A DNA stretch of 64,000 bases from Macrostomum lignano (taxonomy: Eukaryota): NCBI GenBank assembly GCA_002269645.1, contig NIVC01002359.1, positions 117,001 through 181,000 of the forward strand. The letters run 5' to 3'. The notes beneath the pieces were generated by a model. That model had not been told where the DNA came from and did not search any database. It worked only from the letters and a program-made list of their open reading frames with translations. Positions 23,811 through 35,239 of the stretch are shown here, piece after piece. Every line of letters begins with the position of its first letter. The stretch's first letter is position 1. The translations under genes and the position numbers were made by a program.

Positions 23811-24457
23811 TGTGTTTTCCAGTTCTGTGATTAAGGCTTGTGCTGGATAGGTTGCAAGGCCCGAAAACCAGTCAGCTATCATCAGCAGTAAATTTGGACA
23901 CCTCGACAGGTCTGTGTAATAAACAAAAATCAATTCTAACACTTGCATGGTGGTCTATTTGCTCCAGGATAAACAGACAGCAACAGGTTTTGCTAATCCT
24001 AGCTGTTGGCGGCATTGGTAGAGAGGCTTGGCTTTTTGCTTAATTCTGCCTTATCGCAGACTATAAGATGATAGAAAAATGCCACAGGGGTCGAGACCGA
24101 GATGTCTGAACTCGATTATCGGACGAATAGCAGTTGGTAACAGAGTGTATCAGGCAGTGTTCAGGTGAGAGGCTTACAGGATCAAAAACGGACACCGCCA
24201 AATCTGCTGGTGTCTGCAGCAGTCGGATCGGCCTGTGGTGATAAAAATTGACTGCAAAATTAAGTGAAAGTCAGGTTAATGCAGACGTTGCATGGGCCGA
24301 GTGTGCATTTAAAGAATGTGTTGCTTTCACTTCACCATCAGGTTTCAAGGTTTCAAGCAACATGTGTAAAATTTACAGAACCGTGATATACATGAGCCTG
24401 CAAAGCAATGCTTGACTAGCGAGTAGTTGAGCTTGCGGAGGGAGTGAGTTATAAATG

Positions 24458-25056
24458 TGAATCGTATCGAGAATCACTCTGTGAATCGTATCGAGAATCA
24501 CTCTGTGAATCGTATCGAGAATCACTCTGTGAATCGTATCGAGAATCACTCTGTGAATCGTATCGAGAATCACTCTGTGAATCGTATCGAGAATCACTCT
24601 GTGAATCGTATCGAGAATCACTCTGTGAATCGTATCGAGAATCACTCTGTGAATCGTATCGAGAATCACTCTGTGAATCGTATCGAGAATCACTCTGTGA
24701 ATCGTATCGAGAATCACTCTGTGAATCGTATCGAGAATCACTCTGTGAATCATATCGAGAATCACTCTGTGAATCGTATCGAGAATCACTCTGTGAATCG
24801 TATCGAGAATCACTCTGTGAATCACACAGAGAATCGCTCTGTGAATCACACAGAGAATCACTCTGTGAATCACACAGAGAATCGCTCTGTGAATCACACA
24901 GAGAATCGCTCTGTGAATCACACAGAGAATCGCTCTGTGAATCACACAGAGAATCACTCTGTGAATCACACAGAGAATCACTCTGTGAATCACACAGAGA
25001 ATCACTCTGTGAATCACACAGAGAATCACTCTGTGAATCACACAGAGAATCACTCT
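24458..25056. repeat. 24-bp minisatellite in two variant blocks (GTGAATCGTATCGAGAATCACTCT, then GTGAATCACACAGAGAATCACTCT)
   Basis: Direct tandem copies with a variant switch near 24815; source of ORFs 24373-25077. Confidence 0.95.
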
Positions 25057-25113
25057 AGCAGGCAGCTGAGGTGACATTTAAATCAACAGAACGGAAGCTC
25101 GCATCCTTGTAAT

Positions 25114-25813
25114 TGTTGGGCTGCGCCCTTCCAGTGTGTATGTACTCGTACTTTTGTTTTCAGTTTTCATGCCACCCCGCCCCGTCCCCCGTCTCGCGCC
25201 CGGGCCAGGGTTTGTGAGAGGCGTAAGTCTCAACCCTGGCCTAGCCCTTTGCACCCAGCCCCCGGCCCAATCTCTGTCCAATCTGGGTGCCCCCCCCCTC
25301 CCTCGTTGCCCGCCTCACCCTGGGGCTGCTCGTATTGGCTGGCTGGCTGATAAGCCGGCTGGGCCCCAGGGTTTGGCTCGCCGTCTCCATTCTGCCCCAC
25401 CCCTCCCCTTTTTTGTGTATTATTTAAATGCTAGCCCTGAGCGGGCTGCGCTCCACGTTTGCTCTCTATTGGTGTCCGCTTCGTTCTTACTGTTTTTGCG
25501 TTCATCGGCGTACCTCTGCCTTCGCGTGCCAATAACTGCTTCGGGCCAATAAACGCTTCGTTAGTAACTCGATATATCAAGAGGAGGTGAGCTCGAGCTT
25601 TCGTTCTTCTGGGTTGCCGCGTGGGGCCGGGATCTGCAGGGACCTGGGAACGGTGAACTCTCGCCGATCCCAGGGTGTTCGGTCAGGCGAACTCTCGCCG
25701 AACCGAGCGAGACAGGGTAGGAATAGCCGGGGTGAGGGCTGGGACAGGGGTGTCTCAGGCGGGGAGGGCCCGAACCTTGACCCGTCCAGCGGCCATTAGG
25801 CCGAGACACAACA
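25114..25813 (+). repeat. 5' LTR (700 bp)
   Basis: Appears identical to 33056-33756 except for one C in a C-run. Contains TATTTAAA near 25420 and AATAAA at 25548-25553. Confidence 0.97.
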
Positions 25814-25815
25814 AG

Positions 25816-25833
25816 TGGTGCCGTGACCAGGAT
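25816..25833 (+). promoter_or_regulatory. Primer-binding site complementary to the tRNA-His(GUG) 3' end
   Basis: TGGTGCCGTGACCAGGAT, 2 nt after the LTR. Its reverse complement ATCCTGGTCACGGCACCA matches the invertebrate tRNA-His 3' end plus CCA as recalled. Confidence 0.85.
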
Positions 25834-25937
25834 CAGCGGTCCTCTCCCCTGCTGTCCTGCCGTGTGTTTAGGGTTGTGTGTGTTGCCTAGTTTATTTGTG
25901 TGTTGTTTGCTTCGGTTGTCTCTGTGTTTTTGTAGCC

Positions 25938-26918
25938 ATGGCCAATTTAGACGATCTGATTGACGCCCTGACGGCGCGTCTGCAAAACGAACTTAATGTG
26001 GCACAGCGGGTGCCGAGGCCAAATAAGTACGTGCCCACACAGGACTTTGCCCTTTGGATGCAACAATTCACAGGGTATTGTGAGGCGGCTCATATTCTAG
26101 GGGATCAGCGCAAGCAGGCGCTGCTCAGTCTGCTTGACTTTAATACTGCTTTCAAGGCTGTTGCGAATCTTGAGTTGGCCGATGATTTGCCGTATGATGA
26201 GTTTGTTGAGCAGCTAGAGGCTAGGTTTGATGAGAATAGGACTGCTCAAGATTACAAGACCGAGTTCCAGAGTAGGAATCAGAAAGATGGCGAGCCCATT
26301 GAAGAATATGCAGACGTGCTCAAGGAGCTTATGAGAAAATCGTACCCAATGCTGCCAGCGGCCCAGCGAGAAGAGTTGGTGAAAGACAGGTTTTTGAAGG
26401 GGATTCGGGTGCCAGCCCGGGTGCTGGAGAGCGTGCTGCTGCAAGCGCCAGAGACGCTCCAGGACGCTATTAGGCGGGTGCGTCAAGTGAGGGCATCGTT
26501 GGCTCTGATGGAGCCCGAGGGCAAGCGAGCTGTGCACATGGTGGGGGGTCAGGCCGCAGCGGCTGGCAACAGCCAGGAGTCCAGGGCAGCCGCCGAGATA
26601 GCAGCTCTGAAAGCGGAAGTGGCTCAGCTAAAAGCAAGTGCTGCAGCGCCCACTGCGCCGATGGCGACAGCAAGGTCTGAGCAGCCAAAAGTGAGCTTGC
26701 AGCATCGAGCCCCTGAGCAGAGTCAGCAGCAGAGGCAGTGTGGTCGGTGCCTGCAGACAGGGCATACTACGGCTCGGTGCCGTAATGCAGTGGTCTGCCG
26801 GGAGTGTGGCCAGTCAGGGCACATGCGCAACCGCTGCTATCGTCGGTGGGACCAGTCGGGTTCGGGAAACGGATTGGGGGCTCGGCCGGGGCACCCGTCC
26901 GGGCCCCAGCGTCAGTGA
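25938..26918 (+). CDS. gag: Gag (capsid-like domain plus two CCHC zinc knuckles)
   Basis: GCCATGG start context; QKDGEPIEEYADVLKELMRKSYP...LVKDRFLKGI gag motif; knuckles CGRCLQTGHTTARC and CRECGQSGHMRNRC. Confidence 0.95.
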   Translation: MANLDDLIDALTARLQNELNVAQRVPRPNKYVPTQDFALWMQQFTGYCEAAHILGDQRKQALLSLLDFNTAFKAVANLELADDLPYDEFVEQLEARFDENRTAQDYKTEFQSRNQKDGEPIEEYADVLKELMRKSYPMLPAAQREELVKDRFLKGIRVPARVLESVLLQAPETLQDAIRRVRQVRASLALMEPEGKRAVHMVGGQAAAAGNSQESRAAAEIAALKAEVAQLKASAAAPTAPMATARSEQPKVSLQHRAPEQSQQQRQCGRCLQTGHTTARCRNAVVCRECGQSGHMRNRCYRRWDQSGSGNGLGARPGHPSGPQRQ

Positions 26919-26928
26919 ATCCGGGTGC
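26864..26928 (+). promoter_or_regulatory. -1 programmed ribosomal frameshift signal: G GGA AAC slippery site plus H-type pseudoknot
   Basis: The heptamer 26864-26870 is in the correct gag phase. A 6-nt spacer precedes stem 1 (26877-26885 / 26899-26907) and stem 2 (26891-26897 / 26922-26928). A -1 shift enters the pol frame (GKRIGG...). Confidence 0.85.
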
Positions 26929-29900
26929 ATCGGGGGCCGCGGCCTTGTCCCAGAGTGTGCTGAGTCGGCAGGGACTGGGCTATGTGGATGCACAGTTTAG
27001 GTTTGGGCCCCCGATTGCATGTCTGCTTGACAGCGGGGCCACCGTGTCGTTGTTAAGCAACCGTTTCCTGAAGTCTAAAAAAGCCGACATTGACTTATTG
27101 CCGAATTTGCCGAATTTTTCCGTTTTCGCTGCCAATGGGGAACCGATTGCTGTACATGGAATGGTGACGATGAAGTTTTCTGTTGGGGACACCGAGTTTT
27201 TGCACGAGTTCGCTGTGGTCGAGGAACTGGCTGTGGCATGTATTCTGGGCACTGACTTTTTCGTGAGACACGGGATGGCGATTGACTTTGCTAGGAATTG
27301 CTTGCAGACTGCATCCTGTGTGTATCCGTTTCGCTTATCAGCAGATAAGCCGCGTCTTTGCCGTCTGGTGCTGAGTCAGCCTGAGCAGTTCAATGCAGGT
27401 CAAGAGAAGGTGGTGCACGTCAGGTTGCAGAGAAGGGTTCCCTCTGGGGTTCAGTTCCTAGGCATTGTGGAGTCTGAGAGGAGAGTGAGTAACGAGCAGA
27501 TGGTGGCCAGATCGGTACAGATGCCTGACGGGGACGGTCGCTTGGCTGTCAGGGTGTTGAACACGTCAGGATGCAGTCTGTCATTAAGGAAGGGAAGCCG
27601 AATTGGTTGGTTCTCCCCAGTGGCGGCCCAGCAGCCAGCTGGGTGGCAGGTGAACTCGGTGGAGAGTGTCCGAGACGACTGGAACCCCCTCAGCGATGTC
27701 AAGGAGTGGGGAGGATGTGGCCTGACGGGCGATGAGAAGCACGAGTTTGAGCGCCTGATGGCTCGGAATCGTGATGTCTTTGCCAGGGATAGCTCGGAGT
27801 TGGGACAGTCACACTTGATGGCGCATGAGATTGACACCGGCAACGCCAAGCCAGTAAGTCAGCCCGCGCGTAGGATTCCACCGCGCTGGAAGGAGGAAAT
27901 TGATAAGCAGGTTGATGAGTTGTTGCAGCAGGATCGCATCTATCCCTGCTACTCTCCGTGGGCGAGCCCGATCGTGCCGGTTAAAAAGGCCGACGGTAGC
28001 TTGAGGTTGTGTCTAGACTATCGGCGCCTTAACGAGGTCACAGTGCCAGATCCTTACCCACCGCCGCGGATGGACGAGACGCTTGATGCGCTAGGAGGGA
28101 ACTGTGTTTTCTCGACGATGGATCTGGCCTCCGGCTATCATCAGTGCCCGATTGAGCCGAAGGACCAGTTGAAAACGGCGTTCGTGGTACCCAACAGGGG
28201 TCAGTTCGCCTGGAAGTGCATGAGTTTTGGCTTGCGCAATGCTCCCGCTACGTTCGCCAGGCTAATGTCTATGGCCCTGTCTGAGGTTAACTGGAAGGAG
28301 TGCCTGGTGTACTTTGACGATATAGTCGTGTTCGCCAAGTCGGTGGGTCAGCATCTCGAGCGATTGAAGCATGTTTTCCAGTGCCTGAGGGATGCCAATG
28401 TCAAGCTGAAGCCCGCCAAGTGTGTGTTCCTCGCAGAGCGGGTGAAGTTTCTGGGCCACATCGTCTCTCAGGAGGGGATCGCAACGGATCCGAGCAAGTG
28501 CGAGGAGATCCAGAATTGGCCGAGGCCATGTAGCGCCAAGAAGGTGCAGGCATTCCTGGGTACGTGCGCCTACTATCAGTCATTTATCCCGCAGTTTTCA
28601 GAGATTGCAGCGCCGCTGTATAGGTTAACCGCAGACGGAGTGAAGTTTGAGTGGGGTAGTGAAGAGGAGAGCTCGTTTTGCAGGCTGAAAGACGCTTTGT
28701 GTTCACCGAATGTGATGGCATTCCCGGATTTTTCGCCTGGTGCCGGGGAGTTCATCCTCGACACGGACGCCAGTTCGCGCGTCGGGCTGGGAGCCGTCCT
28801 GTCACAGCGTCAAGCAGATGGCCGTGAGAAGGTGATCGCTTACGGGTCTAGGATGATTCATGCGGCGGAGAAAAATTATTGCACCACCAGGTTAGAGTTG
28901 CTTGCCGTCGTGCACTTCGTCAAAAAGTATAGGTACTATTTGTTAGGTAGAAAGTTCACTGTTCGTTCAGACCACAAAGCTTTGCAGTGGCTAGCCAGTC
29001 TGAAGGACGTAGAGGGTCAGTGCGCAAGTGGCTTGAGTCGCTCCAGAACTTCGACTTTGAGATCATTCACAGGCCAGGCAAGGAGCACGGCAACGCTGAT
29101 TCGCTGTCTCGCAAGTACCGAAAACACGCTGGCCATGAGAGCTGCCCTAGCTGCCAGTTTAGCGAGAATGTGCCAGTAGTGAACGCGGTGTTTGGCAGTG
29201 GGCTGTCTTTGAAGGAAGTCCAGCAGGCGCAAGTGGCCGAGAAGAAGCTTGCAGCTGTCCGCTCCTATGCCCTGGACCCGGGTTCGAACCCCAGTGCGCC
29301 TAGAGTGATGTCGTGGGAGGAGCGTGTGCTGTGGGCACAACGGCAGCTGATAAGAGTAGAGTCTGATCTGTTGTATTTTCAGAGTCCCGGGAGTGGGTGC
29401 CAGAAAAAGATCTTGCTGCCGCCGGCTTTGCTGCCGAAAGTGCTCAGTGAGCTTCATGATGGGGTTGCAGGAGGGCACCTTGGGGTTAGGAAGACACAAG
29501 AGAAAGTGAAGGCGAGATACTGGTGGCCGGGGCTGAGTCGTTCCGTGGAAGAGTATTGCCGGAGCTGTGTCCACTGTGCGAAGGCGAAGCCTGGCGCAGC
29601 AACCGGGCGCCTTTGCAGCCAATCTGCTCGGAAGGAGCTTTCCAGAGGATCATGAGTGACATTGTCGGGCCGTTGCCCAAGTCCAGAGGTGGCAATCGAT
29701 TCGTGCTGACAATCCAGGATTCTTTTACTAAGTGGCCGGTGGCGGTGCCCTTGTCCAATCAGCGAGCCCCGACGGTGGCGCGAGCGATTTTTGATCACTG
29801 GATTGCGCACTTTGGTTGTCCTGAATTTCTAGTCACCGATAAGGGCACCAATTTTGAGTCGGCTTTGATGAAGCAGTTGTGTCGGTTGCTTGCCGTTAAG

Positions 29901-30800
29901 AAATGCAGAACGTCCTCCTATCACCCGATGGCTGATGGTCAGGCTGAGAGTTTCAATAAGACGTTGAAGTCAATGATCAAGTGCAGGATGAGTGAGTCGG
30001 TGGGCGAAGGAGACTGGGAGGATCTGATCCACCCGTCTCTCATGGCGTACCGTAGCAGCGTTCACAGAGGCACGGGGTACACCCCGTACTACATGCTGTA
30101 CGCCAGGGAGATGCGGCTTCCAGTGGACATTGGAACCTTGCCTGAGTCCATTCCTGCCAGTGCTCCGGCGTATGTTCAGTCATTAGGTAATAGTCTGGCT
30201 GAGGCTCATTCGCAGGTGCGGACCAACCTGCAGCAGTACCAGAGGAAACAGAAAGTGCTGTACGACTCAAGGGTGCGAGGCCCGGCCATAGAAGTTGGGG
30301 ATGCCGTCCTAGAATACTCGCCTGCGCTGCAGGCAGGGGAGGCAGCCAAGTTCCATTGCAATTGGAAGGGGCCGGCGAAGGTGTTAGAGAAGATATCCGA
30401 TTTGAATTACCGGGTAAAGCACGCCAATAGGGGAAAGAGCAAAATAGTGCATTATAATAATTTGCGAAAAGTACCCGAGCGGCCTGAGCAGTTCAGGTTG
30501 ATGAATAGGCATACGGCAGTGCAGCGCCGGTCGGCGCATCCGCCTGAGCCGGCAGGGTGCAGACAGGAGCCCGCGGGGCCGGCGACTAAAGAGCCGGAAC
30601 TTGAGGAGGAGGAGGAGTTTTACTCGTATGTGGTGCCACCAGTTGCCGTTGGGCCTCGGCATGGGATAGTAGGGCCGGGAACGCCAGTTGCGCCATGCGC
30701 ACCGGTGGCTCCAGCGGCGCCAGCCGTGTCTCCGCGCAGACTGCGCGAGCGTCGGGGTGTGCCCCCAGCGTATTACGGGAATCCGGTATTGTATCGTTAA
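26864..30800 (+). CDS. pol: Pol polyprotein (protease, RT, RNase H, integrase), split in this sequence by two single-base deletions
   Basis: Protease LLDSGAT; RT LCLDYRRLN, DLASGYHQ, YFDD; RNase H FILDTDAS, TRLELLAVV; integrase HDGVAGGH...CVHC, DIVGPL, TDKGTNF, GQAESFN, WKGPAKV. Frame breaks at ~29028 and ~29594. Confidence 0.95.
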
Positions 30801-31138
30801 TTCGCAGTGGGCTCACAAGGCGGTCGTCATAAATTGATTTTTAATATGCACTTGTATTAATGCCTCCACGCTGTTGTCTATGGTAGAAAGCCTAAAATAA
30901 CCTAAAATGAAAAAAATGATACAACCCCAAAGCACAAAAAAATTCATAAAATGGAACGCATGAAAAGCACATAAAAAACATTAAATGTATTAAAATTACA
31001 AAGTATGCTAGGCAAGAAGCGTTCTCAATCGTATTGTAAAATAAACATGTCATAGGATGGGTCAGGTCAGGGTCACAGTTGCTAGTCCGCAAGGCATAGG
31101 TAGTGATTGGGTTTAAATGTCATCATTGCAGGAGGACC

Positions 31139-32815
31139 ATGTCGTCGCCAACGACACCGACTGATTTGTATGGCGTGTTAGGCGTGGGTCGGACTGCTAA
31201 CTCTGCGGAGATTGAGGCAGCGTGTAGTCGTCTGTACTCAAAGCGGCCCCGCGTCTGTCCTGCCGAGGTAGAGTCTCCGGAGTCTCAGCGAGACGTGATG
31301 GCGATGTGCGTTTTATCTGACCCAGTGTTTCGGGAAGTATACGATCGGGTTGGAGAGGCAGCGTGTCAAGGGGTGTTAAAGTACGCCTACTTTTTCAATC
31401 CTCCCCCTGACGTTGAGTTGCCCGAGCAGGTCAGGTTAGCTTTGGCTAGTCTTAAGGGAAGCGCCGCAGGGGAAGCTCCAGTTCACGCGGAGATCCCAGC
31501 CGAGTTATTGGCTCCGGCTGCGCTTGCTGAGTGTAGGCGGCTGAGGGGTGCGCTGCTGGCGCGGTTGAGGGCTGGGGATAGTGAAGGAGCTTGCCTGGTG
31601 GTTCAGGAGGTGGCGAGGTTTCTTGATGGGGCTGGTGTGAGTGTGCCTGAGCAGTTGTCTAGATTCTTAGCAGTGTCTGTGTCGTTTCTGTGCAATCAGT
31701 ATGGGCGGAAGAGAGGTTCTGGTGGTGGTTCCGGGAGGTGTCGGAGGGTCCCGCCTTCGGTGCTGCAGGCGGCGTTTGAGTGCGTGTTGTTGGCTGTGCG
31801 GGGTTTTGAGCTGTGTGAGTTGGGGGGTCCCTTGTTGGGGAGGCTCCGGGGTCTGTCTCTCTTAGTGGATCCTGGCCTCGCGCGGCGCCCGGAGGAGGGG
31901 AGTGACGGGCCGCACCTTTCGCAGACTCCGCTGACGGCCCAGCGCGACTTGGCGACCGAAGAGTTAACGGGTGTCGACCCCGAGCAAGTACGACCGGCCG
32001 ACACGGTCCAGGAGGTCTCCCCCCGTGACGACCCGAATCAGCGCAAGGTCAGCTCGGCTAAGCGTCTCGTCGATGCAAAGGCATACCTAACGAGGCTGGG
32101 CCGGTCGATTCAGCCCGAGGACCTTCGTGGCGTGCGTCGATGTCTAGCGGCTGTAAACTCGCCGTACTGCCTGCGTCTAGAATGTCCCGTTGTCCGACCA
32201 CTGCTGCAAGACCGACGGATCGTGTTCGCCCTGGGCCTGAAGGCCAGTGCTGCACCGTGGTGGCCATCGCTGCGAGACGATGTACGACGATTTCTAGCGG
32301 GTAGCTGGCCGCGTGTCGTGGCGGTCGGCGAAGTCGAGCTCAATTGGGACGCTGAGAGGTCGCAGCGCCAGGACCAGTTAACGGCGGCGATGGAGCAGTT
32401 CTTGCTTGCCAAGGAGTTCGGCCTGCCGGTTTTGTTCCGAGTTGAAGGCGGCGAACCTGCCTGGGCGGTCGCCCTAGGATTCCTCCGGCAGCCGGAGTTT
32501 CAAGCGATGAGCGTCATGCTGGCCGAGGACCTGGACTTGCCGGAGGCCGTCGAGGCCGCGCTGGTGAGCAAGTGCCACGGGGTCTTCTTCGAGGTGTCCG
32601 CTCGGTGCCGAGGATCCCCGCGAGCGGTCCAACGGGCTAAGCGTCTCCCGCGGCAGCGCCTGCTAGTGACATCGGCCGCACCGTTTGGTGGAGACCCCAA
32701 GGACCCGACAGCCATCAAGTTCGTGCCGGAAGCCCTAGCGGACAGTGAATGTGATCGCAGGTACTGGACTCGACTGTTTGCGACCAACTGTAGTAGATTT
32801 TTTGGCCGATTGTAG
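31139..32815 (+). CDS. ORF3 cargo protein: degenerate J-domain, helical linker and catalytically degenerate TatD-like domain (558 aa from the ATG)
   Basis: Uninterrupted ORF with ACCATG start. J-like DLYGVLGV...EIEAACSRL...VLSDPVFREVYDRVGE (31163-31357). TatD-like from RLVDAKAYL (32063) through VVAVGEVELN, LAKEFGLPVLF and RLPRQRLLVTSAAP to TNCSRFFG. Domain calls are by eye. Confidence 0.82.
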   Translation: MSSPTTPTDLYGVLGVGRTANSAEIEAACSRLYSKRPRVCPAEVESPESQRDVMAMCVLSDPVFREVYDRVGEAACQGVLKYAYFFNPPPDVELPEQVRLALASLKGSAAGEAPVHAEIPAELLAPAALAECRRLRGALLARLRAGDSEGACLVVQEVARFLDGAGVSVPEQLSRFLAVSVSFLCNQYGRKRGSGGGSGRCRRVPPSVLQAAFECVLLAVRGFELCELGGPLLGRLRGLSLLVDPGLARRPEEGSDGPHLSQTPLTAQRDLATEELTGVDPEQVRPADTVQEVSPRDDPNQRKVSSAKRLVDAKAYLTRLGRSIQPEDLRGVRRCLAAVNSPYCLRLECPVVRPLLQDRRIVFALGLKASAAPWWPSLRDDVRRFLAGSWPRVVAVGEVELNWDAERSQRQDQLTAAMEQFLLAKEFGLPVLFRVEGGEPAWAVALGFLRQPEFQAMSVMLAEDLDLPEAVEAALVSKCHGVFFEVSARCRGSPRAVQRAKRLPRQRLLVTSAAPFGGDPKDPTAIKFVPEALADSECDRRYWTRLFATNCSRFFGRL

Positions 32816-33043
32816 AGTAGAATTGCGTTCTTAAGCCCGTTTTCAATTTTTGCGTACGCAATAGTTTGTGTCCCGTTTTCATTTTTTCGTTTTTGTTTTT
32901 TGTAATGCCGGCGATATCCACGCGTCGCGTCAAAGTTTTTCTGTTATTTTTCGGCCGTCGTTTCTTGAATAAACTTTTTTTCAGACTTGCTTGTTCATGC
33001 GTTGCTTTTTGCTTGACATCCCCTTTCTCCTCTTCTTTTTCTT

Positions 33044-33055
33044 GGAGGGGGAGGA
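33044..33055 (+). promoter_or_regulatory. Polypurine tract
   Basis: GGAGGGGGAGGA immediately before the TG of the 3' LTR. Confidence 0.92.
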
Positions 33056-33756
33056 TGTTGGGCTGCGCCCTTCCAGTGTGTATGTACTCGTACTTTTGTT
33101 TTCAGTTTTCATGCCACCCCGCCCCGTCCCCCGTCTCGCGCCCGGGCCAGGGTTTGTGAGAGGCGTAAGTCTCAACCCTGGCCTAGCCCTTTGCACCCAG
33201 CCCCCGGCCCAATCTCTGTCCAATCTGGGTGCCCCCCCCCTCCCTCGTTGCCCGCCTCACCCTGGGGCTGCTCGTATTGGCTGGCTGGCTGATAAGCCGG
33301 CTGGGCCCCAGGGTTTGGCTCGCCGTCTCCATTCTGCCCCACCCCTCCCCCTTTTTTGTGTATTATTTAAATGCTAGCCCTGAGCGGGCTGCGCTCCACG
33401 TTTGCTCTCTATTGGTGTCCGCTTCGTTCTTACTGTTTTTGCGTTCATCGGCGTACCTCTGCCTTCGCGTGCCAATAACTGCTTCGGGCCAATAAACGCT
33501 TCGTTAGTAACTCGATATATCAAGAGGAGGTGAGCTCGAGCTTTCGTTCTTCTGGGTTGCCGCGTGGGGCCGGGATCTGCAGGGACCTGGGAACGGTGAA
33601 CTCTCGCCGATCCCAGGGTGTTCGGTCAGGCGAACTCTCGCCGAACCGAGCGAGACAGGGTAGGAATAGCCGGGGTGAGGGCTGGGACAGGGGTGTCTCA
33701 GGCGGGGAGGGCCCGAACCTTGACCCGTCCAGCGGCCATTAGGCCGAGACACAACA
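33056..33756 (+). repeat. 3' LTR (701 bp)
   Basis: Direct repeat of 25114-25813; AATAAA at 33491-33496; followed by TSD TAAT. Confidence 0.97.
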
Positions 33757-35239
33757 TAATAAAACAATCAAAGAGCAGAGCACCCCCCCCCCCCCCTAAG
33801 CCACAGCAAAGCAAATCTATGGGAAGTCCTTTCGATACTGCAGCGCAGCATGTGGGGAAAATTTTGGATCGCATTCCCCCTAATAAATCAAGTTCCTAAG
33901 GGGTGGGGGTTTATGGGGGACCATGGCAATGGCAATAATAATTTTTCCTAACTGATTTACGATTCATTCAAAGCAATCTATATATAAAAAGCCTAGTGGC
34001 GGTGGTGGGCCCATGAGGGAGGGGGTGCGGCGGTCCCCGTTTGCGAGTCAAAGCTAACAGTTGTCATAAATCATAAACCTCGCGGCTTGGGCATTGAAGC
34101 AGAAATTAGCTCTGTTTATTATATACAATAAATATACATAGTTCTACAGTTGCGGTTTGTTCAACAGTCCTAAGGCCGGGGGCTATTTGTCAAGACTACA
34201 GCAATTAGCCACCCCTTCTGTCTGTTTGCTTGCGAGAGGGGTTCTGTTCAAGACTTGATAGTTGCAACTGTCAACTATTACAGAAATTGGATTAAAATAG
34301 ATAAACAGAGGCTCGCTTTCGTGGTTGCTGTCCTGTCTTCTCTTTCCCTCTATCTATTTGCAACTCTGTTTGATCATTGCCGCCGCAGTGTTCGCTGGTC
34401 TGTGGGCAAGAGTTGAAATTTAACCAAAAAAATTCTTCACAATAATAACGCTGCTTCTAATCAGCTTTAACGGTTGGGGCTTCGCGCTGTCTGTCTGTCA
34501 CAAATGTGAATATCAATGTGTTTTATCTCCATATGTGTGTTGTCTCTCGGCCTCTGTGAACTTGTGGCGGCTAAACCGCCGCGGCCTGTCACTGTCACCC
34601 CCCCCCCCTGTGCTGGAGATGACAGGCTGACAGGGCAGAGATACCGAGAGCCGCTTTCAAAGCAGTTTTGACAGGCGGTTTATCAAAAGCCCGACACACC
34701 AAAGCCGCACATCAGCTGGAGGCCGCCTTGAAAGCTATAGTAGTCAACTAAGCAGAATTCTCAGCCGTTCTGTCAGAGAGCTGACAGATAGGATCAGCCC
34801 CCCCCCCCTAAAGAGATTTCTTCCAGGGTTTGATTTCGGTGCAACGCTTGACAGTATAGTTTAGCCGCGCATTTTGCATTTTGCTTGTTGTGACAGCCAG
34901 CAATATTAGCTACCTCTTATTCTCTTAAAGATACCATGTTTTTCCTGCTTTTCCTATGCATAAGTCATACTGAATAGCGCAATAAAAACCTACTTACGAG
35001 TAGGCAAATAAAAATGATATATGATCCTAATGCTTACTAACAACTTGTTTACTAAGAATTGGGGTAAATAAGATTTTTATGCCTCCAAATCTGTGGGGTA
35101 GGAGAACTTGGGAAGCCGGGTGAGTCACTGAAGATTTTTATACAGTTTACACTCGTAAATCCCCTAAACTTGCTTTGAGGCTACCAGGCTCAGTCCCGTC
35201 TCTGAAGGTTAACTGCTAAATTCGGTGGGCCTGAATTGC

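Follow-up and report, generated by a model that had tools for sequence, protein, structure and literature searches.

A modular J-domain protein encoded behind the integrase in one clade of Macrostomum lignano gypsy retrotransposons

One clade of gypsy retrotransposons in the genome of the flatworm Macrostomum lignano carries an accessory gene, ORF3, that codes for a J-domain protein. A comparison of the families has shown that this protein is modular, with a J domain, an acidic linker and a helical domain, plus add-ons that are specific to single families. In the window (the whole stretch of 64,000 nucleotides of contig NIVC01002359.1 that was analysed), we confirmed that ORF3 is a real, intact, non-env gene in a complete Ty3/gypsy element.

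The element spans positions 25114-33756 and, like all the features given below, is on the forward strand. It is framed by a 4-bp target-site duplication, TAAT, identified from the flank sequence (25110..25113 on the left and 33757-33760 on the right). As in other Ty3/gypsy elements, paired TG...CA LTRs (25114..25813, 700 nt, and 33056..33756, 701 nt), target-site duplication, primer-binding site, polypurine tract (33044..33055) and gag followed by PR-RT-RH-IN are all present. The primer-binding site read from the sequence (25816..25833) starts with TGG and is presumably of the tRNA-His type. Gag (25938..26918) has CCHC knuckles (Pfam Retrotrans_gag, E=7.8e-5; zf-CCHC, E=0.023), and pol (26786..30800) is in the -1 frame relative to it, with a slippery heptamer at 26864. 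In the assembled copy, pol is distributed over three frames (26786-29179, 28951-29655 and 29490-30800), with Pfam matches to RVT_1 (4e-33), RNase H (3e-29), Integrase_H2C2 (1e-22), rve (2e-8) and Integrase_p58_C (6e-9). The LTR pair has no mismatches and one 1-nt indel, and 41 matches to this LTR were found genome-wide. We take the element to resemble the Gmr1/Osvaldo cluster of Ty3/gypsy. Forty families of Gmr1/Osvaldo type have been listed in M. lignano (PMC12801592). The heat-inducible, HSE-bearing LTR family of this species was considered and rejected as an identity for the element, the published Mlig-id38 LTR being different (337 nt); no canonical heat-shock element was detected in the LTR of the window's family (family A), nor in partial downstream stretches of the related families B-H. 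The gene identifiers of family G do not appear in the heat table, where a different set of identifiers is in use.

ORF3 (31139..32815; ATG at 31139, stop at 32815; 558 aa) begins after the integrase stop (30800) and an A/T-rich spacer of 338 nt (30801..31138), and it ends before the polypurine tract. Contigs from four public runs (four studies) span the gene, with no indel inside it among the matches listed, and those of two of these runs join the integrase to it. The protein starts with a J-like domain (aa 9-69) that has a conserved extension to ca. aa 105 (31163..31453; Pfam and PDB sequence match), followed by a five-helix domain (aa 129-245, 31523..31873) with a basic loop (aa 190-203) and without a confident known fold, a disordered linker (aa 246-308, 31874..32062; pLDDT<50 across aa 236-325) and a predicted TatD-fold pseudo-nuclease (aa 309-558, 32063..32812). 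The J-like and TatD-like modules had already been proposed in a preliminary description of this DNA (as aa 21-85 and 321-570, numbered from the upstream stop, 13 codons 5' of the ATG), and both are confirmed here. The Pfam matches of the window protein, to DnaJ over aa 9-69 (E=0.0025) and to TatD over aa 359-535 (E=5.5e-5), are both under the curated cut-off, which the proteins of sister families pass. The top match of the PDB sequence search was DNAJB13 (E=6e-5). A structural check pointed in the same direction: the AlphaFold2 model (mean pLDDT 61.7) has four helices in the J region, and the best 15 Foldseek matches listed (E<0.001) are TatD-family proteins or a related yeast amidohydrolase (best E=1e-6; TM(target) 0.68-0.72). 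The middle of the protein, first seen as helical or of low complexity, is indeed helical, but it contains a folded domain (pLDDT 88), the five-helix one. A hydropathy scan revealed no env features, i.e., neither a signal peptide nor a TM anchor (highest 19-residue hydropathy 1.49; N-terminus 0.46). Furin-type R-x-[KR]-R motifs, reported as absent in the preliminary description, do occur twice (aa 200 and 499), but they are meaningless since there is no signal peptide. An env-bearing (errantivirus-like) gypsy element was also rejected, the model resembling TatD and J domains and not a fusion glycoprotein.

At least eight gypsy families of the genome (A to H), with integrase identities of 47-61%, have a J domain and the same helical domain directly behind the integrase. 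All seven J-bearing proteins of families B-H are above the Pfam DnaJ cut-off (E=1e-12 to 6e-18), as are the TatD modules of B and C above theirs (E=3e-8 and 1e-7). The fusion of J and TatD modules was first taken to be the architecture; the conserved core is instead the J plus the helical domain, with the basic loop in the latter and an acidic linker between the two, and TatD is present only in A, B and C (3/8). The HPD motif is found in seven families and is missing only in family A, in which the loop has become KRPRV in the 26/26 loci where the region was found, so that the J-like domain of the window is a pseudo-J domain. Its branch is also long (1.37 vs 0.08 for B and C). The loss of key residues holds for the TatD site and, in family A, for the HPD; with the HPD kept in the other seven families, the J domain is not a decoy in general. 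Two sister lineages, I and K, have no ORF3, which makes it an accessory gene and an essential role in particle assembly, as once suggested, unlikely. The integrase tree (66 columns) is resolved for D+K only. All ORF3 families come from one genome, and the sole relative outside is one fragment of 166 aa. The comparison also shows that dozens of M. lignano gene models annotated as "J domain-containing protein" are transposon genes.

Between the J and helical domains, a SIM-like motif appears in six of the families (B, C, D, E, F and H, not in A or G), with nearly identical wording in four of them (hhISDD[ED]). The pattern (a hydrophobic core, then S and an acidic run), which we take to be that of a SIM, was composed after viewing the sequences, and chance matches turn up in 1-14% of the shuffles of an individual protein; weight is therefore given just to the position and wording that the families have in common. 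A complex prediction with a host SUMO-like protein and the family-B peptide scored 0.29, under the mark of 0.34, and is given no weight. Family G alone (1/8) has an HP1-like chromodomain (Pfam E=1.5e-12; best PDB matches Swi6, CBX5, CBX1 and HP1, E=1.4e-10 to 2e-8), placed between the J and the helical domain and in an ORF separate from the integrase. When it is aligned with Swi6 and CBX5, two of the three positions that we assume to form the aromatic cage are aromatic, with V replacing a Swi6 Y at the third.

The TatD module resembles the TatD/YcfH/TATDN nucleases (PF01026) in its TIM-barrel fold and sequence profile but differs from them in the replacement of five to six of seven metal/catalytic residues, the reversed charge and the fusion to J and helical domains. 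Among the seven columns used as reference (H-x-H, E, H, H, E, D), invariant in 21/21 canonical TatD proteins, one is kept in family A (E398 in the window) and two in B and C, and the net charge is +5 to +8 (+8 in the window) vs -3 to -17 in canonical TatD. Judging from these residues, the module is probably catalytically dead, and the model suggests that the barrel fold was retained. G+C-rich codons (GC3 0.68) may contribute to the positive charge.

The five-helix domain adds a new domain. Pfam and PDB profile searches and the Atlas were blank, a fold search of PDB and BFVD gave nothing at E<=0.001, and the best VIA Z was 8.0 (B12-cap helical domains included), which is usual for helical bundles. 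Its profile had three matches, all in M. lignano. A search of representatives gave 12 matches, namely three M. lignano models, the 166-aa fragment, six canonical TatD and two J proteins. The TatD profile retrieved 89 proteins, all of them canonical-length TatD (best 29%), and no relatives were found among 3002 candidates of a TatD-region search or 598 of a metagenome scan. This lack of outside relatives is weak evidence, since the collections searched are thin in invertebrate transposons.

ORF3 is under purifying selection, both within family A and between the sister families B and C. The preliminary description had deduced its maintenance from an unbroken frame in a young element, an argument that is worthless with identical LTRs; the real evidence is dN/dS, which is well below 1. 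Against two diverged copies, family-A ORF3 gave values of 0.33 and 0.28 (Fisher p 9e-5 and 2e-5), with 23 and 21 amino-acid changes where neutral simulation using the observed transition bias predicted 35.8 and 32.7 (P=0.0002 and 0.0004). For the J region, dN/dS was 0.15 (p=0.002) in one of these comparisons and 0.60 (p=0.27) in the other. Between B and C, it was 0.06 for the J domain, 0.03 for the helical domain and 0.13 for TatD, with dS near saturation. The survey of family copies that had been proposed together with this test recovered ORF3 in 21 of them (10 unbroken and 11 broken or cut). Only 3/20 family-A integrase matches are in open frames of >=1338 aa, i.e., pol is broken in 17/20 in this assembly.

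An acceptor-like site precedes ORF3 in all eight families. Its YAG is immediately 5' of the ATG in F, G and H, 1 nt away in E, 7 nt in A (CAG at 31129-31131, at the end of the spacer) and 16 nt in D; B and C have a common TTGCAG/TG and no in-frame ATG close by. Inside the 5' LTR there is a splice-donor-like AG/GTGAG (GT at 25587), used as donor in a database gene model, itself a prediction. The message for ORF3 may be subgenomic and spliced. Among the contig ends listed for the four public runs, none joins an LTR donor or spliced leader to the acceptor; as contigs drop rare forms, this speaks neither for nor against splicing. A deleted copy was rejected as a spliced copy, its junction (29590/31016) not being at the acceptor, and two loci into which other elements had inserted were uninformative.

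We favor, with a probability of roughly 0.45, a reading in which ORF3 acts in the nucleus, where it delivers host Hsp70 to RNA or silenced chromatin, by analogy with the polyomavirus large T antigen. The latter likewise begins with an HPD-bearing J domain, behind which short docking motifs lie in a disordered linker, and recruits Hsc70 through the HPD, as described in the available text of PMC11720896 and PMC13254874. T antigen is, however, a replication protein of a DNA virus, with origin-binding and helicase domains, and its homology to ORF3 is limited to the J domain, so the comparison is one of working mode. It reportedly releases E2F from Rb. ORF3 would act as a targeted J-domain co-chaperone: the SIM-like motif would dock it on SUMOylated silencing proteins, the chromodomain on H3K9-methylated chromatin and the basic dead TatD on the nascent RNA or RNA:DNA hybrid of the element. 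Once placed by these modules at the silenced copies, the HPD loop would trigger host Hsp70, the repressive complex would be pulled apart and the element transcribed. The available portions of the sources describe SUMO-SIM recruitment of SetDB1/Wde in piRNA silencing (10.1101/533091), disruption of the piRNA machinery by Hsp70 with release of transposons (10.1101/423210) and action of TATDN2 on R-loops (PMC12754012). Anti-silencing was among the functions first suggested and, although conjectural as before, it gains support from the chromodomain and SIM-like motif of other families. A fuller version, to be taken as tentative, is a transposon-encoded chaperone adaptor whose J domain would direct Hsp70 against SUMO/HP1-type silencing complexes on element chromatin, while its address labels (a SIM, an HP1-like chromodomain or a dead nuclease) replace one another in the course of an arms race between element and host. 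Family A would be a derived form. Since it lost the HPD and SIM-like motif and kept the J fold, helical domain and TatD barrel under selection, the most probable role of its protein is that of a shield or scaffold that binds but does not cut nucleic acid, and it would not drive Hsp70 itself. Against the main reading, the two motifs on which it rests are precisely those missing from the protein of the window, and the helical domain, the only part present in all families, has no matched fold or partner.

It seems rather unlikely that ORF3 is a Rev/CERV-like regulator, translated from a spliced message and binding unspliced element RNA in the nucleus through the basic helical domain and dead TatD, with Hsp70 remodeling or exporting the RNP. 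The acceptor-like site in all eight families, the basic loop and the basic pseudo-nuclease would fit, and CERV of the C. elegans gypsy-type element Cer1 is such an accessory nuclear protein made from spliced mRNA, which the available text of PMC10309623, on whose description our comparison is based, presents without a J-domain, TatD or chromodomain. However, the chromodomain and SIM-like motifs point to chromatin, and the loss of an export factor should not come easily, yet ORF3 is missing from lineages I and K; an element with no spliced message would, though, have no need of one. TatD binds nucleic-acid ends, and the hepadnavirus reverse transcriptase is chaperone dependent, in line with Hsp70 being recruited for RT folding or particle assembly/uncoating while the dead TatD caps cDNA/RNA ends against host nucleases. 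Viruses and phages are also described as encoding J proteins to hijack Hsp70 (PMC13254874, in part). We give this alternative, which takes up two further ideas of the preliminary description, a smaller chance, since it leaves the chromodomain, SIM-like motif and basic loop unexplained, ORF3 is dispensable in two lineages and TatD is missing from 5/8 families. Improbable too is a role in guiding and unpacking the integration complex, with chromatin modules as tether to chosen chromatin, in the manner of the chromovirus integrase chromodomain, and Hsp70 dismantling the complex after strand transfer. Chromodomains are known accessory domains of LTR elements, and that of chromovirus integrases is gypsy-borne like the HP1-like one of family G (PMC6338049, available text), but the latter differs in its place outside the integrase ORF and in being limited to one family; moreover, ORF3 is a separate frame, unfused to the integrase, and 15 family-A insertion flanks had no common target sequence. 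That the family-A protein is a true decoy, its HPD-less J blocking host J-protein/Hsp70 pairs and its dead TatD the host TatD nucleases, is very unlikely: both key motifs are lost with the folds kept, one of the two J-region comparisons indicates constraint and Pam16 is a known example of a pseudo-J protein (PMC13254874, available text), but the other comparison does not, the ancestral state has the HPD (7/8) and the long J-domain branch fits relaxation equally well. Neutral cargo from a captured host mRNA, intact only through the youth of the copies, would fit the identical LTRs, the 11/21 damaged ORF3 copies and the rotifer extra ORFs, reported in the accessible part of PMC5408684 to show no departure from neutrality, but it is refuted, unless the tests fail on larger sets, by dN/dS values well under 1 at both levels of divergence, with ORF3 kept across families whose integrases are ~50% identical and pol broken at least as often.

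Literature searches found no prior description of a J-domain or TatD extra ORF in LTR retrotransposons, in agreement with the novelty claimed in the preliminary description. The closest cases are other captured domains. In LTR retrotransposons of bdelloid rotifers, ORF3 (DEDDy exonuclease or GDSL esterase) is likewise a nuclease domain of host type that was captured and occupies the place of env, family specific and gained or lost, but according to the available text it keeps its catalytic residues and has no J-domain, TatD, SIM or chromodomain, while in the flatworm the nuclease appears dead and selection is clear (PMC5408684). The AlkB m6A demethylase of orchid Ty3/gypsy elements, also a captured host domain and proposed to counter host surveillance, is an active plant enzyme unrelated in domain to ORF3, as far as the available part of PMC9289625 describes it.

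LTR retrotransposons with extra ORFs have been described before; in the present case an entire clade retains a selected J-domain protein and swaps chromatin-type modules around it, adding a new five-helix domain and a putative retroelement-borne pseudo-nuclease. Little is understood of the means by which transposons of animals actively oppose piRNA/SUMO/H3K9me silencing, and ORF3 is a concrete, modular candidate, with natural controls built in (HPD, chromodomain and ORF3 itself, each present or absent) in an animal that has transgenesis and RNAi. If the fuller, tentative version of the main reading is true, ORF3 would be an animal transposon anti-silencing protein working by chaperone-driven disassembly, and the HPD-less, TatD-bearing form of the window would have gone over from disassembly to shielding.

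A complete Ty3/gypsy element occupies positions 25114-33756 of the window (forward strand), with LTRs of 700 and 701 nt (no mismatches, one indel), a TAAT target duplication, PBS and PPT, and, by Pfam, gag followed by PR-RT-RH-IN. Its pol is spread across three frames, breaks peculiar to individual copies or to the assembly, since three of the 20 integrase matches of the same family (family A) lie in frames of at least 1338 aa. Of the family-A loci, 15 extend as far as the 3' LTR terminus, and all of these differ in their flanks; the family has therefore spread recently. A 24-bp minisatellite (24373-25077) directly adjoins the insertion, and other tandem arrays, with units of 11-49 bp, are abundant in the window, where no other long non-repetitive ORF was found apart from this element.

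Between integrase and PPT lies ORF3 (558 aa; 31139-32815, forward strand), an open reading frame that the preliminary description took for a non-env gene with J-like and TatD-like modules, and so it proved. Taken alone, the sequence matches are weak: the J-like part (aa 9-69) scored E=0.0025 in Pfam and E=6e-5 against DNAJB13 in PDB, the TatD-like part (aa 309-558) E=5.5e-5 in Pfam. However, the 15 matches with E<0.001 listed in a fold search with the ORF3 structure model are TatD-type structures, and a four-sequence profile matched 12 TatD chains at E<0.001. Neither a signal peptide nor a membrane anchor appeared in a hydropathy scan. ORF3 is matched at 98-100% identity by database proteins, gene models that bear the label Macrostomum lignano, and it is covered by contigs from four public runs, for which no indel is listed. 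Family-A ORF3 was found on 21 contigs, unbroken on 10 and broken or cut on 11. One copy (L008) has a 1.4-kb internal deletion that removed most of integrase and left ORF3 intact; in another (L007, 4050-4674) the 3' LTR is rearranged and gag begins again after it, a tandem or nested arrangement.

Genome searches with ORF3, its family-B relative and the DnaJ profile, with one to four loci fetched per group, placed a J-domain ORF directly after integrase in eight gypsy families (A-H), the integrase cores of which are 47-61% identical. TatD is added in A, B and C and missing from D, E, F, G and H; A and B are sisters in the integrase tree (100/99), built without C, which fits a single TatD gain. 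Helical-domain matches in the genome number 21 for D, 26 (matches) for F and six for H, with three matches for E and 21 equal-scoring DnaJ matches for G, counts that overstate copy number because the assembly is described as redundant (PMC12801592). In B and C, each copy read contains one interruption, a stop or a frame break; the D-H examples are open. Common to all eight is a ca. 115-aa domain with a basic loop (cross-family E of 1e-9 to 1e-2), modeled as five helices (pLDDT 88, pTM 0.80), that gave no confident match in Pfam or PDB profile searches or in structure-fold searches. More diverged helical-domain matches (35-65%) suggest further families (genome G000, C94:932407, C2590:48778, C1319:219265, C2039:3681, C543:345025, C2146:129238, C1982:173851, C24:819638 and C487:401108). 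Family G ORF3 (L039, 603-1601, reverse strand) carries between J and helical domains an HP1/Swi6-like chromodomain by sequence match (Pfam E=1.5e-12; best matches Swi6, CBX5 and HP1); this ORF is entered as a stand-alone 328-aa host protein in two public gene models (PAA78660.1, PAA83624.1). A SIM-like motif, by a pattern set post hoc, is found in the linker of B, C, D, E, F and H and not of A or G. The genome also contains an intronless SUMO-like gene in seven equal-scoring copies, six in opposite-strand pairs on three contigs (L049-L051; G000 C1551, C1565, C2589 and C2596).

Both modules had been thought to have lost their key residues, which is true of family A but not of the J-domains of the other families. 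All 26 family-A loci showing the region lack HPD, and the J-domain of this family is on a long branch; B-H keep the motif, all seven above the Pfam cut-off for DnaJ. The seven metal/catalytic columns of TatD, invariant in 21 of 21 canonical proteins, are reduced to one in A (E398) and two in B and C, several having become Lys or Arg, and the module has a net charge of +5 to +8 (A, B, C) versus -3 to -17 in canonical proteins. The only relative found outside M. lignano, P0004 (a 166-aa TatD-like fragment on a 1.2-kb contig), has a dead active site as in family A; being at best 51% identical to that family, it comes from another lineage. Since the losses are common to A, B, C and P0004, the barrel died early and was kept anyway. 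Among database sequences the barrel comes closest to bacterial-type TatD, at ca. 30%, too distant for a donor to be named.

Two lineages inside the clade are without ORF3, which is therefore accessory and has been lost on at least two occasions. Lineage I, the closest to A (integrase 73-81% identical), had no J, helical or TatD match in the four loci fetched, three of which reach the PPT, and lineage K, sister of D (100/100), lacks ORF3 (one of two loci fetched). ORF3 was also absent from two loci at 40-41% integrase identity. The integrase-PPT stretch of lineage I is different and G+C-rich, without J, helical, TatD or Pfam match (L041, 2006-2746, reverse; L042, 722-1412, forward; L044, 1803-2544, reverse), and may represent a cargo gene that decayed or was replaced. 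In D, F and K the region from the last ORF to the PPT contains G+C-rich tandem repeats (L035, 560-1227; L038, 1-677; L045, 1175-2097).

That ORF3 is maintained had been argued from its unbroken frame, which is uninformative alone because the LTRs are identical; the claim stands on the comparison of copies. Against two 96% copies, taken as they stand, dN/dS was 0.33 and 0.28 (p 9e-5 and 2e-5), and 23 and 21 amino-acid changes were observed where a neutral simulation with the observed transition bias expected 35.8 and 32.7 (P=0.0002 and 0.0004). The signal is clear in the helical domain (0.13, 0.24), mixed in the J part (0.60, 0.15) and not significant alone in the TatD region (0.47, 0.35). Between B and C, with dS near saturation, values were 0.06 (J), 0.03 (helical), 0.13 (TatD) and 0.09 (integrase end); inside B, one comparison restricted to TatD did not reach significance (0.62, p=0.32). 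The window ORF3 is thus real and selected.

As for expression, YAG stands directly before the ATG in F, G and H, one base before it in E, 7 bases before in A and 16 in D; TTGCAG|TG is common to B and C, in which no in-frame ATG lies close to where the J domain starts. The chance of a YAG per family is ca. 6% within 1 nt and ca. 43% within 16 nt, so that the case for an acceptor rests on E-H and B/C. A predicted gene model (P0005) joins an LTR donor at 25587 to the ORF3 acceptor. From these signals we infer that ORF3 would be expressed by splicing into an acceptor before its ATG. Alternatively, the message could arise through the trans-spliced leader of M. lignano, reported to end in ATG (PMC8629364).

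The constant parts would be a J domain that triggers Hsp70 and the helical domain, and the variable ones (SIM-like motif, HP1-like chromodomain, basic dead nuclease) candidate addresses in nuclear silencing. SetDB1/Wde is reported to be recruited by SUMO-SIM contacts in piRNA silencing (10.1101/533091), Hsp70 to be able to dismantle the piRNA machinery, freeing transposons (10.1101/423210), T antigen to engage Hsc70 with an HPD J domain (PMC11720896, PMC13254874) and TATDN2, a TatD-family member, to act on R-loops (PMC12754012). Because of the SIM/SetDB1, Hsp70 and T-antigen precedents and the address-like modules, the reading we favor, at a probability of roughly 0.45, is that ORF3 would bring Hsp70 to silenced element copies. 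The window's own protein is the weakest case for Hsp70 recruitment: in family A, HPD and SIM-like motif were lost together and TatD was kept, suggesting that the protein moved toward a shielding or scaffolding role. ICP22, without HPD, is reported still to recruit Hsc70 (PMC13254874). An RNA export factor, like CERV of the C. elegans element Cer1, is an unlikely reading and a chaperone of reverse transcriptase or particles somewhat more so; the targeting of integration is less likely still, and a pure decoy improbable. Neutral cargo is hardly credible.

The architecture had been called undescribed, and we found no report tying a J-domain/DnaJ or TatD ORF to a retrotransposon in the literature covered, with Repbase, GyDB, subscription journals, bioRxiv supplements and an earlier classification paper by the authors of the M. 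lignano LTR survey outside its scope, any of which may already record the ORF. Term searches never tied DnaJ or TatD to an element in the main text and five supplements of an M. lignano LTR survey (PMC12801592), nor in the searched text of PMC13524379, PMC5408684 and PMC6431247. Extra ORFs in gypsy elements are reported as a known kind (PMC5408684, PMC6338049, PMC10309623); what appears new here is an accessory gene with a J-domain that is modular, under selection and shared across a clade. The window ORF3, the function of which we infer, belongs to a larger, so far undescribed system.
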